Part shown: one piece after another, positions 1 through 22,380 of the stretch
How the letters are laid out: the number at the start of each line of letters is the position of its first letter
How positions within the stretch are numbered: the first letter of the stretch is position 1
Source: Escherichia phage UGJNEcP1
Strand: one strand, 5' to 3'
Sequence record: OV754623
Length of the DNA: 64,000 nt
Translations under genes and position numbers: made by a program
Notes under the pieces: model-generated
Databases searched by the model: none
What the model was told of the DNA's origin: nothing
The model's input: only the letters and a program-made list of their open reading frames with translations

Positions 1-72
1 ACCAGTAGCACGTTGAGCGTGAGCGTTATCGATAAGACCTGCAAAGTATTCAATGTAATGTGAACGTGTCAT
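1..72 (-). CDS. hypothetical protein, N-terminal fragment (gene continues past window start)
   Basis: ATG at 70-72 (minus) with AGAGGAAAA Shine-Dalgarno and promoter-like element at 101-130; frame open to window edge. Confidence 0.4.
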   Translation of the reverse strand, partial: MTRSHYIEYFAGLIDNAHAQRATG

Positions 73-100
73 AATATTTTCCTCTCGTTAAGATAGATTC

Positions 101-130
101 ATTATACTCCAACCATCCTTGGTTGTAAAC
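101..130 (-). promoter_or_regulatory. early sigma70-type promoter (GTTTAC-18-TATAAT) with hairpin CAACCA/TGGTTG in spacer
   Basis: Minus-strand reading GTTTACaaccaaggatggttggagTATAAT; near-identical copy at 1121-1150. Confidence 0.6.
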
Positions 131-134
131 TGTT

Positions 135-1094
135 TTATGATTTTAATGCATTCATTGCATTAAAAAGTTTAGAATACTGCAACTGGAGATTCGTTACAAC
201 ACTTTGAGCATCACGAAGCTTAGCTTGTGCTTTGTCAAGTTCAACAGACAGTTGGTCCATAGTGGCCTTGATTTGATTGTAATGGTAATCTTCGGCCGGA
301 AGAAGGTCATTAGAAACATTTAGTTTTACTGCAGACAGTTTGCACACATTTGGCAAACCTTTAAACATTGATTTACCCGAAGTAGAATAAGCACTTAGGA
401 CTTCGGCCTGTTCAATTGGGGTCCCAGTAAGCGATGCTTCAAACGTTGCATTTTCCTTTTTAAGATTTTTATAATATTCAGAGTCTTTGTGCCACCATGG
501 CGCAGGAACCTTTTTACCAATAGATACACGAGCCTGGATAGCGATATTGCCCTTATTCTTGATAGGGTCGATAATATTAAGCTCACGAGAATAAATCGCT
601 TTAATCTGGTGGATATTATCACCTAAAACTTCCAACGCTTGGTGGAATACACGAGCAACGTTATCATTCTTAGGATTATATGTAAGAGTGAACTCGTTCT
701 CACTGATAACCATGATTTCTAACTTATCGTAAGTGTACTTAAGATGCTTCATGTTAATTGATTGAGGACGAATACGAGAAGCAATGGCCATCAGATTGTT
801 AAGGTTATTTCGGAACTGTTTAGCGAAATATTGTCCTTCACCGCCGATACAAAAATTACGAAGTTTCTGTTTGGCTAATAAACGGCTGAACTCACCATTT
901 TTAATGAACTCTTTAACGGGTGTGTTAGTAATGCATTCAAATTGAGTAAACATACGAGAATTAATCCCATAATATGAACAGATTTCCTCAATCTCTTCAG
1001 GAGTCTTTACAGGCATACGGATAGGATTAGGTCCTGGGGTATATGCGTTCGAGGTAAATTCTTTGATAAGTTCTCTACGTGTAATAAAAGCCAT
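135..1094 (-). CDS. hypothetical protein (319 aa) with C-terminal coiled-coil-like region
   Basis: Long ORF on the dominant coding strand; own upstream promoter-like repeat at 1121-1150; no family recognised. Confidence 0.6.
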   Translation of the reverse strand: MAFITRRELIKEFTSNAYTPGPNPIRMPVKTPEEIEEICSYYGINSRMFTQFECITNTPVKEFIKNGEFSRLLAKQKLRNFCIGGEGQYFAKQFRNNLNNLMAIASRIRPQSINMKHLKYTYDKLEIMVISENEFTLTYNPKNDNVARVFHQALEVLGDNIHQIKAIYSRELNIIDPIKNKGNIAIQARVSIGKKVPAPWWHKDSEYYKNLKKENATFEASLTGTPIEQAEVLSAYSTSGKSMFKGLPNVCKLSAVKLNVSNDLLPAEDYHYNQIKATMDQLSVELDKAQAKLRDAQSVVTNLQLQYSKLFNAMNALKS

Positions 1095-1120
1095 TTTATA
1101 TTCCTCATGTTGAAAAATTT

Positions 1121-1150
1121 ATTATACTCCAACCATCCTTGGTTGTACAT
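1121..1150 (-). promoter_or_regulatory. early promoter repeat copy (variant -35)
   Basis: 28-nt identity with 101-128. Confidence 0.5.
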
Positions 1151-2145
1151 CATTCCTTAAGAAGTTTTACTACTTGAATAAGATTAGCTCGTTCTGTTTT
1201 ATTTTTACCATTTAAGCCTGCTAATCGTGAGATTTCACCATCAGTCTGTTGAATAGTTACATTAAGTTCGTTAATCAAAGCTTCAAAGTATTTGATTTGC
1301 TCAGCATGTTTTGATTCAAATTTCTGAACCGGAATAACGTCTTGGTTTAGTTCATCAATAAGGTCTTTAAGAGCATCTTCTTGGTTGATATCATATTCAA
1401 CTTCTTTTATTTCTTCAACGAGCTCATCTTTATATCTAACGTCTTTTAGTCCTGGGGTCGGGCCTAAAATCTCTTCTTTAAGAGTACAAACATATCCAAT
1501 ACGATATCCAGTGCCGTCTCGCTTGATATCAACTTCGTCGATAAATCCACAATGTTTGAGGCCAGAGCCGATTAGGTCAAAATATCCTTGACGACGTCCT
1601 TCAAACGTTACACGAACTACTAAGACAGTTTTACCTGCAACCTTTTGAAGCTCACATTTATAAAAGTCAGTTGAACCTGAATAACGTGGATGAGTTTTAA
1701 AGTTCATCTGACGATCTAAGCCCATTTGTAAACGTGCTGATACGGCCAGAAAACGTGTTTGGTTCTCGTTAAGATGAGCAACAATCCATTTCAAAGGCAT
1801 TTTACCCTGTTCACGACCGAACAAATCAGTATGTCCTAGATTACGCAGGATGTTGTTAGAGTTAATCATCGACAGAACGTTAAGTTTATTCAGCGCGCTG
1901 AAGATTCCATCAGCCATTGATTTTCCGTAGCCTTTACACGCTTTAATAAGCGCTCGCGGTAGATTAGTATAGATTTCAGACGGCATATGAAAATCAAATT
2001 TACTAACCAGTAATTGATGAACTTGGATAGCAATTCGTTCATAATTAAGTGCTCTGCGATCATTATGGTCTTTAAACCACACTTTAATCTGTGAAGCACA
2101 TAAACCGTTAATTTCATGTTTTACCGCATCAGATGTAATGCTCAT
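1150..2145 (-). CDS. hypothetical protein (331 aa)
   Basis: Long ORF, compact spacing with neighbours; no family recognised. Confidence 0.6.
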   Translation of the reverse strand: MSITSDAVKHEINGLCASQIKVWFKDHNDRRALNYERIAIQVHQLLVSKFDFHMPSEIYTNLPRALIKACKGYGKSMADGIFSALNKLNVLSMINSNNILRNLGHTDLFGREQGKMPLKWIVAHLNENQTRFLAVSARLQMGLDRQMNFKTHPRYSGSTDFYKCELQKVAGKTVLVVRVTFEGRRQGYFDLIGSGLKHCGFIDEVDIKRDGTGYRIGYVCTLKEEILGPTPGLKDVRYKDELVEEIKEVEYDINQEDALKDLIDELNQDVIPVQKFESKHAEQIKYFEALINELNVTIQQTDGEISRLAGLNGKNKTERANLIQVVKLLKE

Positions 2146-2207
2146 AACTATTTCCTCAGATTGAATTGGAACTCAAAACCATTATAACCCGTCCTTGGGT
2201 AAAGCGT

Positions 2208-2735
2208 TTATGCGTGAACCGTCTTTAAACGTTCTTCAAATTTCCGAAGAGTACTAATACGTTCTGCTTTCTGTTTTGTATAGTTTGCAATACGTTCTGA
2301 AGTGAGAGCGTATCGTTCGTTTACTGATTCTTTCATGAAGTCAGGGATTTCACGAGAAGCTTTAATTTCATCAAACTTATCGAGTACTGCCTGGTCTTCA
2401 GCGATTAAATTTTCGTACATCTCGATATCTTTCTTGATAAACTCGATATCTTCCTGGGTTACTTTGGATAAACGAGATGCTTTATCCTTTTTGTACTGCT
2501 CGTTAGTTTCACGAGACCAGAATAATGTACGTTTTTTGTTAGTGTTTTTGTAGACTTCCACAATTCCAACTGAATCGATGATAACAATCCAATTCCAGCG
2601 AGATTTGAAAATCTGACCTCCGTCTACGGTAATCTCGTTACCATAAGCAACGTCATTAAAGAACTTGCTTTGTGCTTCAGATTTAAATTTACCGTCGTTA
2701 TAATTTACCAGGTTGAAAATATCTTTAGCGTTCAT
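2208..2735 (-). CDS. hypothetical protein (175 aa)
   Basis: ORF with GGAGG Shine-Dalgarno and PeSL-type promoter immediately upstream (2754-2791). Confidence 0.6.
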   Translation of the reverse strand: MNAKDIFNLVNYNDGKFKSEAQSKFFNDVAYGNEITVDGGQIFKSRWNWIVIIDSVGIVEVYKNTNKKRTLFWSRETNEQYKKDKASRLSKVTQEDIEFIKKDIEMYENLIAEDQAVLDKFDEIKASREIPDFMKESVNERYALTSERIANYTKQKAERISTLRKFEERLKTVHA

Positions 2736-2753
2736 GTTTTACCTCCAGTAGTT

Positions 2754-2791
2754 GATAGGTCTATAATAACATAATCATAGACCTTGTAAAC
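2754..2791 (-). promoter_or_regulatory. PeSL-type early promoter (GTTTAC-17-TATTAT) with stem AGGTCTAT/ATAGACCT
   Basis: Consensus hexamers and inverted repeat around the -10. Confidence 0.65.
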
Positions 2792-2793
2792 AA

Positions 2794-3081
2794 CTAAAAG
2801 AAACTTTTTTCGGTATTTTTTCCACTGAACCAAACAGACTTCGGGATTTTTTGTAATTTTTCAGATTTAAGTTTCTCTTCCTGTTCTTTCTTATATACAC
2901 CCTTGTCGTACTGGAGCATCTCTATGGCATTCTTTTGCAAATGATCTAAGGTAATTAAGGCTTTAGTTTTTCCTTTCAAGGAAGAGTCCTGGCGAACCTC
3001 CTCGCTATATTGCATTGTAGAACTAACCATACGATGAGCATAGAGTTCAACGGCGGCTTTAATTTTTTGCATAAAATCCAT
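2794..3081 (-). CDS. hypothetical protein (95 aa)
   Basis: ORF with AAGAGGA Shine-Dalgarno 7 nt upstream of ATG. Confidence 0.55.
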   Translation of the reverse strand: MDFMQKIKAAVELYAHRMVSSTMQYSEEVRQDSSLKGKTKALITLDHLQKNAIEMLQYDKGVYKKEQEEKLKSEKLQKIPKSVWFSGKNTEKSFF

Positions 3082-3219
3082 AACATATCCTCTTTGATTT
3101 GTACATCATTATTTTTAAATATTTCTATGCCCTCAGTAGGTTCCTGGTGTCCTTCTTTGAGGTAAGCCATATGATTATTCATCTTTATGGCTTTTGTTAC
3201 CTCAGAACTTCCTATAAGC

Positions 3220-4221
3220 TTATTTCAGTAAAGTTACTTCAGAGATTTCCTCCCAACCATCTTTATCAGTTGAAATAAAATCTGCTACATAAAGAGCCGT
3301 ACGTAATGATACATTGCGAAGACGAGATACGTTAGCCTTCATCCAGGACAATGCTTTATACGTTTCTGCATCCGTCAGACCACGTTTCTGCATCATGTCA
3401 GTAGATAATATTACATCTTCAACTCGAACCATAATCTCTTCATTAGAGTGTACTCCAAGATCGAGATACACTGAACGAGATACTAAAGCTTGAAGGTGTG
3501 GAGCAAGTTTAGAACCGCGTTCTAACTCTTTATCGATATCAACGTTTGTAATGAAAACGATAGTACCTTCAAACTCAAATTCTTTATCAATACCCTTATC
3601 CTCGAGATAAGATGACGCAGTGCTCCAACAAACTTTGCGTTTATCTCCGGTATCTAATGCTGCTTTAAGAAGGTTCAGGATGTCCATATCTGAGAATACG
3701 TCAACGTCATCGATTAAGAGAACGCTGTCTGCATCACGGTTGAGCCAAAGTTGTTCGTAAAGGCCAATGCCAGAGATTTTACCATTAATGCTTTTGTATT
3801 TGATGAAACCATTATCATTAGCATTATTAAGTGCTTTATCCAGAGAATACGTCTTACCAATACCAGCTGCACCTGAAATAATGAGTGAACGAATTTTGCC
3901 ATCGATAATGCCATTCGTCATCATGTTCATTACTTTAAAGCGTTTGTTGATACGAGTTTTCATATCTTCAGTGCTTTCAACAACTGCAACCGGTGATGTC
4001 TCAACTCCTTCCATTACGATGTCTGATTTGAAGACCCATACTCCACGTTCAGAACCATCAATCATAACGAAAATTTTACCATCACCTAAGTGGGAACATT
4101 CAGGATTAAGCTTTGCTGGGAACCAGGTCTTTGTGGCGACATAAGAACCAGAGATTTCGTTATTACGATAGATACCTTTTTTGATTTGAACGTTGAACAT
4201 TTTATTCTCCAATTTACTCAT
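3220..4221 (-). CDS. P-loop NTPase (Walker A GAAGIGKT, Walker B VLLIDDVD), AAA-like
   Basis: Walker A and B motifs read directly from the translation; promoter 4230-4267 upstream. Confidence 0.6.
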   Translation of the reverse strand: MSKLENKMFNVQIKKGIYRNNEISGSYVATKTWFPAKLNPECSHLGDGKIFVMIDGSERGVWVFKSDIVMEGVETSPVAVVESTEDMKTRINKRFKVMNMMTNGIIDGKIRSLIISGAAGIGKTYSLDKALNNANDNGFIKYKSINGKISGIGLYEQLWLNRDADSVLLIDDVDVFSDMDILNLLKAALDTGDKRKVCWSTASSYLEDKGIDKEFEFEGTIVFITNVDIDKELERGSKLAPHLQALVSRSVYLDLGVHSNEEIMVRVEDVILSTDMMQKRGLTDAETYKALSWMKANVSRLRNVSLRTALYVADFISTDKDGWEEISEVTLLK

Positions 4222-4229
4222 TTCGTTTC

Positions 4230-4267
4230 GATAGGTCTATAATAACATATCCTAAAAGCATGTACAC
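4230..4267 (-). promoter_or_regulatory. PeSL-type early promoter (variant -35)
   Basis: gataggtctataataacat... cassette shared with other copies. Confidence 0.5.
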
Positions 4268-4280
4268 TACTTTTTAAAAA

Positions 4281-4314
4281 TATTTTAACCCCCTAAAGGG
4301 ACCCGAAGGTCCCC
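4281..4314 (-). terminator. hairpin terminator (GGGACC-TTCG-GGTCCC)
   Basis: GC stem-loop downstream of 4319..4585; related copy at 22835-22858. Confidence 0.45.
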
Positions 4315-4318
4315 ACAT

Positions 4319-4585
4319 TTACTTATCGCACTTAGCAACATAATTAGGCATATCACAGAATACGGAGCGAGTAACTACTCGGCCCTTTGACCATGCTTCA
4401 GTTGCTTGTCCGGCCGTGCTATTAATATAGCTTGATTTAATGTTCTCAATACCCTGAGAATGTGATGCATTTACCGAACCATTGGAAGGCCCGGAAGACT
4501 GGTTACCACCATCTCCTGCACCTGTGTTAGCACCAACAGAGAATGCCATCATTACTGCGAATAAACCAATTACTAATTTTTTCAT
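4319..4585 (-). CDS. small secreted protein (88 aa, N-terminal signal peptide, C-terminal Cys pair)
   Basis: MKKLVIGLFAVMMAFSVGA hydrophobic leader; followed by hairpin terminator. Confidence 0.55.
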   Translation of the reverse strand: MKKLVIGLFAVMMAFSVGANTGAGDGGNQSSGPSNGSVNASHSQGIENIKSSYINSTAGQATEAWSKGRVVTRSVFCDMPNYVAKCDK

Positions 4586-4617
4586 ATTTACCTCAAGTTA
4601 AGGGGTTATTTATCTAC

Positions 4618-5607
4618 TTATTTATAGTAAGAATTATGATTTTCGAGATAGACTTGTTCAAGGAAGTCATCCCAGAAACTCATATCTACTTTTTGTTGCA
4701 TACCGTTCTTGGCAGCTTGTTCTGACGCATGTTCAACTTGGACAACGATATCTTCTAGGAATTCTTGTACAGTTTTAAACGTATGTTTACCAAGCTTAAC
4801 ATTGAGAATAAATGGAGCATCCTGAAGTGGGTAAACCAGGTCGCCGGTTTTGTAAATTTCCAATAATTGAAGTCCACCACGACATGCATGACTCAATGCT
4901 TTCCAGTCAATACCTTCGTTGGCTTCTGCCTTACGAGCACGTTCGCCATAGTTCTCTTCTAGTTTAACCAGGATGGCATTAAACTCTTTATTGGTTAACG
5001 TGTCTTGGAATTTACGGTCTAACAGATTATAGAATGTTTGCTTACCTGTTTTCTCGTTTTCGGTTTCAACCCATGAAGCAAATTCACCTACAGGCAGAAC
5101 ATTCTTCATATGTGATAAACGAATTACTGCACCGTTATCAAAGTATTGTCCCCATTCATTAGAACGTTTAAGGGCTTGACGAAGAACAGCCAGTCGAGAA
5201 CCCTTGACACCGTATTTAGAAGCTTGCTTACGGACATACCCTAAATAAGATTTCATGTTAGTGGTATAGAAACGAGACCTGTTATCTTGAATATACTTCC
5301 ATACATCAGGCAAATCAGATTTAACTACTAGACTTGGTGGAGTGTGAAGCATATCTAATGCGACGGTTTCACCATCTGCAGCTAGTTTAAAGAAATATTT
5401 GAGACTATACAACTCGTGGTCCACGTCGTCTTTTGTGTTCTTAGAAGATGTGTTATTCGTATTCTTGCTCATGTGTTCTTTAACGTTACCGGTCAAGATA
5501 TCACGAGCATGAGGGACATAAATTTCTTTAAAATCGACGTCAGATTCAGGAGTAGACGTTCCATAAAGGTGGCTACCAAAGTAGCCTTTCATAATTGTTT
5601 TCATCAT
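4618..5607 (-). CDS. predicted nucleotidyltransferase (pol-beta superfamily-like GS...D.D motif)
   Basis: N-terminal GSHLYGTSTPESDVDF matches the GS-x(9-13)-D-x-D nucleotidyltransferase signature. Confidence 0.55.
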   Translation of the reverse strand: MMKTIMKGYFGSHLYGTSTPESDVDFKEIYVPHARDILTGNVKEHMSKNTNNTSSKNTKDDVDHELYSLKYFFKLAADGETVALDMLHTPPSLVVKSDLPDVWKYIQDNRSRFYTTNMKSYLGYVRKQASKYGVKGSRLAVLRQALKRSNEWGQYFDNGAVIRLSHMKNVLPVGEFASWVETENEKTGKQTFYNLLDRKFQDTLTNKEFNAILVKLEENYGERARKAEANEGIDWKALSHACRGGLQLLEIYKTGDLVYPLQDAPFILNVKLGKHTFKTVQEFLEDIVVQVEHASEQAAKNGMQQKVDMSFWDDFLEQVYLENHNSYYK

Positions 5608-6077
5608 TTAGCCTTATATTCAAGAGTAGGACAGACTTTTTCTTTACGAGCTTTAAGGTATTCACCTATTAATGATTTCTTACGTTCAATAGGCTCAAGT
5701 CCATTTTTAATTCGTTCTTGGTTTTGTGCAATGAGCTCAATTTCTTTATAATATTTTCTGTCGTTATATTTGTCTAACAACCAAGACGGACCAATCACCA
5801 ACCCGGTAGCAATAAAAGCCATGACTGCTACCATTAAAATGCCTACACCAATTGAAGCTGGAACTAATGTCCATAGACTGCTAAAAACAAAGAATCTAGT
5901 TAAAATTTCCTGGCCAATGATTGTGACTGCTGCTAAAATCGCAAATCCAATAATTGAAGCAGCCAATACCGGGATTAACGTTTTCCAAAAATAAGCACAC
6001 AACGTTTTCGGACGATTCCATGTACTATTGAACGCGGCATAAATTTTAAAGTGCCAAGAGTTTTCATTGATAATCAT
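5604..6077 (-). CDS. multi-pass membrane protein (157 aa)
   Basis: Several hydrophobic helices; ATGA-type overlap with downstream nucleotidyltransferase gene. Confidence 0.55.
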   Translation of the reverse strand: MIINENSWHFKIYAAFNSTWNRPKTLCAYFWKTLIPVLAASIIGFAILAAVTIIGQEILTRFFVFSSLWTLVPASIGVGILMVAVMAFIATGLVIGPSWLLDKYNDRKYYKEIELIAQNQERIKNGLEPIERKKSLIGEYLKARKEKVCPTLEYKAK

Positions 6078-22227: not shown

Positions 22228-22380
22228 TATTTCAACGTCACCTTTAGCCGCTTTATAACCTTCAGCCCAAGATACAACAGAGTTTTTATCCGAGGATTCA
22301 AATTCAGGCATTGGACTTTCACCAATATTCACACAGTATGTTTCTTCATTTTCATCGAACCAAATAATTAAAGTAGTCAT
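22216..22380 (-). CDS. small hypothetical protein (54 aa), not in ORF track
   Basis: ATG at 22378-22380 behind a promoter/leader cassette near-identical to the one at 58621-58680. Confidence 0.4.
   Translation of the reverse strand: MTTLIIWFDENEETYCVNIGESPMPEFESSDKNSVVSWAEGYKAAKGDVEIIYI

Follow-up and report, generated by a model that had tools for sequence, protein, structure and literature searches.

The 64,000-nucleotide stretch of Escherichia phage UGJNEcP1 analysed here (sequence record OV754623; the whole stretch is referred to below as the window) begins within an nrdC region in which a short direct repeat, carrying promoter-like hexamers and a hairpin, flanks a single gene encoding a 319-aa protein. 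Over its first 3 kb, the window has 100% identity with Escherichia phage UGJNEcP2 and 97-98% with many Mosigvirus genomes. The gene order was assigned against the annotated records of T4 and NBG1. All genes of the region lie on the minus strand and are, in the direction of transcription, nrdC.11, an 88-aa open reading frame (ORF), nrdC.10, nrdC.9, nrdC.8, a 331-aa ORF, the 319-aa ORF and a gene truncated by the window start. The latter corresponds to nrdC.3, whose full-length orthologue in NBG1 encodes a 316-aa phrog_1435 protein with 59% identity to T4 NrdC.3. Two genes of T4, nrdC.4 and nrdC.7, are absent from the Mosigvirus locus, and the content of the nrdC region varies among T4, Mosigvirus and Dhaka-like loci. 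The location of the features is given in Table 1.

The two intergenic elements, designated copies A and B, are of the promoter-early stem-loop (PeSL) type. They share an exact direct repeat of 27 nt (101-127 and 1121-1147), which extends to 36 nt at 92% identity (92-127 and 1112-1147). A search of the 64 kb allowing up to 3 mismatches returned these two copies only, with 0.00 expected on the basis of 100 shuffles. On the coding strand, copy A reads GTTTACAACCAAGGATGGTTGGAGTATAAT and copy B ATGTACAACCAAGGATGGTTGGAGTATAAT. In both, a spacer of 17 nt, ACCAAGGATGGTTGGAG, separates the -35 from the -10 hexamer, with 11/12 matches to the sigma-70 consensus in copy A and 10/12 in copy B, and the spacer is occupied by a hairpin with a 6-bp stem, CAACCA-AGGA-TGGTTG. 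Besides the element, nothing is found in the gaps between the genes (62 and 55 nt, respectively), and the site orthologous to copy A in NBG1 carries the depositors' annotation "promoter".

The original prediction, made from the letters of the DNA and a list of its ORFs, had described an identical element of 28 nt that contains a -10, the CAACCA/TGGTTG hairpin and a -35. These components were all recovered on the minus strand in both copies, as was the location of the element in front of the 319-aa ORF (copy B) and of the truncated gene at the window start (copy A). The length had to be corrected: the exact identity covers 27 nt, and the string then quoted is 29 nt long and corresponds to copy B, from which copy A differs at the second base (tc... 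vs tt...). Two large genes had also been placed behind near-identical repeats, which holds for the 319-aa gene but not for the 331-aa gene. Indeed, the two identical copies bracket nrdC.5 only, and the 331-aa gene is preceded by a third, degenerate element, in which the hairpin (ACCC/GGGT) is weak and the spacer does not have the length required for its TTTACC to act as a -35. This third element is orthologous to the one that lies between nrdC.8 and nrdC.7 in T4.

Table 1. Features of the nrdC locus in the window and hairpin stems of related elements (positions are those of the window)
Feature	Position	Strand	Description
nrdC.3 homologue, 5' end	1-72	-	cut by the window edge; ATG 72-70; gene behind copy A
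PeSL-type intergenic element, copy A	73-134	-	between the nrdC.5 stop (137-135) and the nrdC.3 ATG
Parts of copy A		-	-35 TTTACA 129-124; hairpin 125-110; GGAG; -10 TATAAT 106-101; Shine-Dalgarno GAGAGG; ATG of nrdC.3
Repeat core, copy A	101-127	-	27 nt, exact; TACAACCAAGGATGGTTGGAGTATAAT
Unit missing from cassette-less relatives	101-1120		1,020 bp
Divergent NrdC.5 homologue (cassette cargo)	135-1094	-	319 aa; Pfam PF23882 (DUF7235), phrog_2351
PeSL-type intergenic element, copy B	1095-1149	-	nrdC.6 stop TGA (1152-1150) abuts the -35
Parts of copy B		-	-35 TGTACA 1149-1144; hairpin 1145-1130; GGAG; -10 TATAAT 1126-1121; Shine-Dalgarno GAGGAA; ATG of nrdC.5
Repeat core, copy B	1121-1147	-	27 nt, exact
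Divergent NrdC.6 homologue	1150-2145	-	331 aa; upstream of the cassette, outside the identical repeats
Third, degenerate element	about 2181-2203	-	TTTACCCAAGGACGGGTTATAAT; upstream of nrdC.6 (331-aa gene); stem ACCCA/(C/T)GGGT
Distant hairpin site	22439-22411	-	stem CACC/GGTG
T4 element upstream of nrdC.3			stem AGCCA/TGGCT
T4 element upstream of nrdC.4			stem CCACA/TGTGG
T4 element upstream of nrdC.7			stem ATACCA/TGGTAT
Dhaka-like contigs, upstream of an nrdC.4-like gene			stem CATCCA/TGGATG

Both large proteins, first thought to match no family, could be assigned. The 319-aa product matches PF23882 with residues 15-318 aligned to the entire profile (1-307 of 307; E=3.2e-120, 401.6 bits for a cut-off of 30), a family to which T4 NrdC.5 also belongs (E=5e-126, 420.6 bits). 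In BLASTP the two proteins are 25% identical (E=2e-11), and the RB69 orthologue of the 319-aa protein bears the name NrdC.5. The 331-aa product falls into phrog_2257 (E=2e-125) and, by precomputed assignment, into PF26899. It displays 30-34% identity with T4-type nrdC.6 over 81-100% of the query in tblastn searches (E down to 3e-26), and its gene is in a syntenic position, downstream of nrdC.8. Both proteins are therefore conserved members of the T4 nrdC.x set, which makes up roughly half of the outcome that the original prediction had named as contrary to it, namely conserved proteins of known function; a phenotype has been published for the NrdC.5 family only.

No similarity was detected by BLASTP between the 319- and the 331-aa proteins. 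A comparison of NrdC.3 to NrdC.6 by hhalign, which rested on shallow alignments, indicated that NrdC.3 and NrdC.4 are paralogous (probability 97%, E=1e-10), gave a weak signal for NrdC.4 and NrdC.5 (E=0.003) and found no relation of NrdC.6 to NrdC.3-NrdC.5. All four resemble one another in length and carry M-x-TR at the N-terminus and a helix at the C-terminus. The AlphaFold2 models computed for the two proteins are poor, with a mean predicted local distance difference test (pLDDT) score of 44.2 for the 319-aa and 47.7 for the 331-aa protein. In the former, only the C-terminal helix H267-318 has a pLDDT >65, and this segment agrees with the coiled-coil-like region that had been noticed there. 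For the locus proteins, sequence searches against the PDB and PADLOC gave nothing significant, and Rfam covariance models had no match at E<=1 within window positions 1-6000. A whole-library phmmer search with the 319-aa protein (1.84 billion representatives) returned only two close relatives, both of the Mosigvirus type, and a profile search returned Mosigvirus-type and Dhaka-type members only. A search of viral contigs with NrdC.8 yielded 8 loci only. Separately, a shortened nrdC.5 homologue was observed in EP32a (locus L019, 1935-2765), with a product of 276 aa (831 vs 960 nt) and only the first 659 nt aligning with the window gene.

The 319-aa gene was detected by tblastn in 132 records. 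It is missing from ESCO47, in which nrdC.6 is directly followed by nrdC.3 with a single element in between. A synthetic query of 780 nt, composed of the NBG1 flanks joined via one repeat copy, was matched contiguously over 780/780 nt by about 20 Mosigvirus records at 96-99% identity, while only half of it was matched in cassette-bearing genomes. The junctions read in seven cassette-less genomes (ESCO47, G2469, AV110, p000v, F2, AV115 and WFK) all have the same build: TGA-TGTAC, which is the left flank of copy B, comes first, then the core and finally the right flank of copy A, which runs into nrdC.3. This is precisely what a crossover inside the 27-nt core yields. The reciprocal hybrid is found in moha upstream of nrdC.5, where the left flank of copy A, including about 26 nt of the nrdC.5 3' end (25 identical), is followed by the core and the right flank of copy B. 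Such a junction is to be expected of an excised circle or of a tandem duplication. An extra ORF encoding a strongly hydrophobic membrane protein of 66 aa lies in moha between nrdC.6 and the hybrid promoter element (locus L026, 999-1199) and constitutes a further insertion at the same joint. In ESCO47 (locus L004, 3501-4478), there is an abrupt change in divergence at the promoter element, with an nrdC.6 protein 68% identical to the other Mosigvirus copies and an nrdC.3 protein 96% identical.

Both states occur in close relatives, G2469 (without the gene) and NBG1 (with the gene) being assigned to one species. In neighbour-joining trees of nrdC.6 and nrdC.3, cassette-bearing and cassette-less genomes are intermixed, and each of the three leader haplotypes that occur downstream of copy A is found with and without the cassette, which points to repeated events or to free recombination around the site. 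The suggestion of independently promoted accessory cassettes is thus borne out for the 319-aa gene, present in about 132 and absent from about 20 records with breakpoints in the repeat, and the cassette evidence does not extend to the 331-aa gene. A second promoter repeat pair (20 identical nt, GATAGGTCTATAATAACATA on the plus strand, at 2754-2773 and 4230-4249) is located upstream of nrdC.8 and nrdC.10 (regions 2754-2810 and 4230-4286, minus strand) and brackets nrdC.9-nrdC.10; its first copy has an 8-bp hairpin (AGGTCTAT/ATAGACCT) overlapping the -10. When a synthetic deletion junction of this pair was used as a query for a negative control, there were 0 contiguous matches in any record, and hence no phage without the bracketed genes was found.

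The hairpin of copies A and B belongs to a family that occurs at 3-4 of the about 14 early-promoter-like sites of the window and that also includes elements of T4 and of Dhaka-like contigs (Table 1). One of these sites, of sequence TGTACAAGCACCAAGGACGGTGATACTAT with a CCAAGGACGG core, lies in front of an ORF whose start is near 22378, at a distance of about 21 kb from the nrdC copies. In 11 variants from Mosigvirus, T4-type and Dhaka-like phages the AGGA loop is invariant and is flanked by the stems CAACCA, CATCCA, AGCCA, CCACA, ATACCA, ACCCA or CACC. Overall, 84.8% of the cells are paired vs 63.4% in shuffles, and the covariation score is 0.494 vs 0.116, a value reached by 0/500 shuffles. Changes on both sides affect 4/6 stem pairs, and the score falls to <=0.136 when the partner is slid by 1-3 columns. 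The variants were collected on a CCAAGGA(T/C)GG core, so that the outer three pairs were unselected, and it is these that covary. Since the stems change in a compensatory manner around a constant AGGA loop, the hairpin itself is under selection. A viral-contig pattern scan for the element returned few loci, and one of them (L014) was discarded as a chance match in the coding region of an unrelated phage. An intrinsic (Rho-independent) terminator was also considered and, judging from the sequence, rejected: the terminator scan calls neither copy, the stem is weak and there is no U run.

These data make it probable that the repeats are PeSL-type T-even early (sigma-70) promoters which, in the hyperplastic nrdC region of a Mosigvirus, bracket an accessory gene that forms an exchangeable cassette with a promoter of its own. 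Copy B would be the own early promoter of the nrdC.5-like gene, and copy A would have the same role for nrdC.3. With identical direct repeats on either side, the nrdC.5 module would be excisable: homologous recombination between the repeats, 1,020 bp apart, would remove it, the reverse reaction would insert it from a circle or from a co-infecting genome, and the neighbouring genes would stay correctly promoted after loss or insertion.

As to the cargo, the early gene nrdC.5 of T4, when expressed, allows a deletion mutant to infect once more cells that carry the Dsr1 defence gene of ECOR17 (Srikant, Guegler & Laub 2022, PMC9391042), and gp49.2, a neighbouring gene product, inhibits OLD (PMC13096335). 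The counteraction of Dsr1 (SIR2) by the former together with the inhibition of OLD by the latter designate the region as a counter-defence neighbourhood. Since the T4 member of DUF7235 overcomes Dsr1, the nrdC.5 cassette is most likely a host-range or counter-defence module, and by analogy an anti-defence activity would be expected of the divergent Mosigvirus NrdC.5. The two genes resemble each other in encoding products of the same Pfam family over their full length with a long C-terminal helix, in their position after nrdC.6 and in their early-gene context. They differ in that the T4 nrdC.6-nrdC.5 gap has no promoter element, whereas the Mosigvirus nrdC.5 is bracketed by two.

Several points weigh against this reading or restrict it. 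The cargo shares only 25% of its residues with the T4 protein. The nrdC.6 and nrdC.3 trees conflict, so that independent events of gain or loss are not countable, and one old event followed by recombination might also account for the distribution. The hairpin is weak, with a minimum free energy of -6.9 kcal/mol (z = -1.65 vs shuffles) and, for individual variants, values of -4.9 to -8.4 kcal/mol (z from 0.06 to -2.1); the sequence following the stem, GAGUAUAAU, contains no U tract. Together, the weak stem and the missing U tract make the terminator/attenuator half of the PeSL definition doubtful here. In addition, the stem is weakened or broken in the hybrid element of ESCO47 and in copy B of locus L005. 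The ESCO47 hybrid combines a Mosigvirus-type 5' arm with a Dhaka-type 3' arm and no longer folds, so that at this site, at least, the hairpin is dispensable. Finally, the GT-rich 3' arm coincides with the GT-rich stretch found 5' of -12 in T4 early promoters (PMC1524935), and some of the hairpin conservation may thus reflect the promoter consensus and not structure.

Regarding the role of the hairpin alone, it is possible, although not the favoured view, that it acts mainly as RNA and that recombination is a by-product of sequence identity, a proposal that is compatible with the cassette being exchanged at promoter repeats. Located after the upstream stop codon on read-through transcripts, it could be a 3'-end stabiliser or a weak attenuator, or could present GGAG to the RegB endoribonuclease. 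The compensatory stem changes do show selection for pairing, and PeSL stem-loops have been proposed and tested as attenuators in RB49 (PMC2839356). Long-form elements have an unpaired GGAG and an A/U-rich sequence (GGAGUAUAAUG/AAA) after the hairpin, and these partly fit the strong intergenic RegB site GG*AGRAYARAA, and RegB requires that GGA be unpaired (PMC3014915). However, no U tract is present and the stem reaches only -5 to -8 kcal/mol, GGAG is absent from the short forms, which precede nrdC.4 and nrdC.7 in T4 and nrdC.6 in Mosigvirus, and the loop-closing pair is A·C on the sense strand in 5/11 variants, which corresponds to G·U on the opposite strand and leaves the relevant strand ambiguous. 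It is unlikely that the AGGA-loop hairpin is instead comparable to an integron attachment site and is recognised by a dedicated phage nuclease or recombinase that actively directs the exchange of cassettes. Such a role would accommodate the constancy of the loop and closing bases while stems covary, the location of the crossover inside the 27-nt core in 7/7 junctions read, and the two arms of ESCO47, which look as if they had been swapped in the loop; Arbiol et al. have also speculated on a recombination protein that binds the stem-loop (PMC2839356). Yet no candidate recombinase is tied to the element, the hairpin family is confined to a minority of the early-promoter-like sites, crossover points are not locatable inside an identical core, and short homology is enough for T4-type recombination, so that the 27-nt repeat explains the junctions; general homologous recombination would then suffice. 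In its broader form, in which a phage factor (such as a structure-specific nuclease, or RegB/S1 in the case of RNA) binds or cleaves the hairpin as a specific recognition element, the idea has a similarly low probability. If true, it would mean that T-even phages possess a targeted, integron-like swapping of self-promoted counter-defence genes at defined sites of the nrdC island.

The repeats might otherwise be regarded as leftovers of a tandem duplication of paralogous genes together with their promoter, the identity of the copies being incidental and without a role in gene flux. The paralogy of NrdC.3 and NrdC.4, the weak NrdC.4/NrdC.5 signal, the common length, N-terminus and C-terminal helix of the four proteins and the occurrence of the T4 element upstream of both nrdC.3 and nrdC.4 are all in line with a duplication. 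Nevertheless, the Mosigvirus copies are identical over 27 nt in front of two genes, nrdC.5 and nrdC.3, that have no detectable similarity, and the presence/absence polymorphism falls at the repeat. Because the T4 copies have diverged in the stem, the identity of the Mosigvirus copies rather reflects a recent homogenisation or exchange. As a full explanation, tandem duplication is largely contradicted and appears improbable. That the cassette-less genomes are assembly artefacts, produced by collapse at the repeat, hardly deserves credence: assemblers can be misled by direct repeats, but 27 nt are far below read length, the same junction occurs in about 20 genomes from different laboratories and countries, and the ESCO47 hybrid has a distinct sequence.

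Upstream of the cassette, nrdC.11 encodes a protein of 329 aa (RlaP-type nucleotidyltransferase), nrdC.10 one of 333 aa (AAA-like), nrdC.9 one of 95 aa and nrdC.8 one of 175 aa. The 88-aa ORF located between nrdC.11 and nrdC.10 (4319-4585, minus strand) begins with a signal-peptide-like segment (MKKLVIGLFAVMMAFSVGANT...), and T4 has no gene at this position. Immediately downstream of this ORF, a G+C-rich hairpin with a T run after it (GGGGACCTTCGGGTCCC...TTAAAATATTTTT; 4287-4303, minus strand) lies just upstream of a promoter at 4266-4239, a classical terminator-plus-promoter layout that is unlike the weak hairpins of the nrdC.5 repeats. In the T4-type IMG/VR contig 2974742932 (locus L006, 8948-9980), nrdC.4 is apparently frameshifted or a pseudogene, being split into ORFs of 193 and 158 aa, and nrdC.3 is nearer to the Mosigvirus type (75%) than to that of T4. 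In many GenBank records all ORFs from nrdC.2 to nrdC.11 are called "thioredoxin"; a Pfam family search gave no thioredoxin match for the nrdC.x proteins considered here, and these labels look like an annotation carry-over from the nrdC.x gene names.

The kind of phenomenon is already known, both as PeSL-mediated shuffling and as NrdC.5 counter-defence. No description was found in the literature searched of PeSLs in Mosigvirus or RB69, of a clean polymorphism with both recombinant junctions, or of a covarying AGGA-loop hairpin family. Natural isolates of one genus, and even of one species, display the two products to be expected of a PeSL exchange, namely the empty hybrid site and the reciprocal junction, which supports the view that short promoter/hairpin repeats serve as joints for the gain and loss of host-range genes in T4-like phages. 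NBG1 and G2469 constitute a ready-made near-isogenic pair for probing what the divergent NrdC.5 protects against, and the AGGA-loop hairpin common to Mosigvirus, T4 and Dhaka-like phages provides a small testable lead on the function of PeSL stem-loops.

When compared to known systems, the elements fit the T4 early promoters, which are characterised by GTTTAC at -36 to -31, a GT-rich stretch 5' of -12 and TATAAT (Nolan et al. 2006, PMC1524935), in their -35, their spacing, the GT-rich region before the -10 and the -10 itself. In RB69, a Mosigvirus, 57 such promoters have been predicted, many of them upstream of single accessory ORFs (PMC1524935). Unlike in these promoters, an A/C-rich 5' arm, which is outside the promoter consensus, pairs with the GT-rich stretch and varies in a compensatory manner between copies. 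With integron attC sites and cassettes, the locus shares single promoter-adjacent gene cassettes, imperfect hairpin-forming repeats at their ends and a proposed excision as circles; this is an analogy only, as here there is no integrase and no common attI, each cassette has its promoter and general homologous recombination is sufficient.

The closest counterparts are the PeSLs, which were reported for RB49/phi1 (Arbiol et al. 2010, PMC2839356) before T4/PST and KVP40/nt-1 were added (Comeau et al. 2014, PMC4122927), and which have been proposed, and partly shown, to mediate the deletion, insertion or replacement of ORFs via recombination between neighbouring elements and mini-circles (PMC2839356, PMC4122927). 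The Mosigvirus stem differs from these in being weak and A/T-containing with an AGGA loop, when RB49/phi1 elements have a Gn-loop-Cn and PST elements an AGNA-loop-TCNT located upstream of the promoter, and in being followed by no U tract, which makes a terminator activity doubtful. Otherwise, the order of stop codon, -35, stem-loop in the spacer, -10, Shine-Dalgarno and ATG is the same, with a stem-loop between -35 and -10 being one of the two commonest PeSL layouts (PMC2839356), and the promoter fits the TTTACW-N17-TAYWAT consensus of T4/PST PeSLs (PMC4122927). The Mosigvirus elements thus combine a sigma-70-like promoter, a stem-loop within it, an intergenic position and a repeated sequence at which indel breakpoints fall. 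As in the PeSL systems, they occur in a hyperplastic region as direct repeats around a single accessory ORF, with relatives that differ by the loss or gain of this ORF, a hybrid element at the junction and a reciprocal, circle-type junction that is also present.

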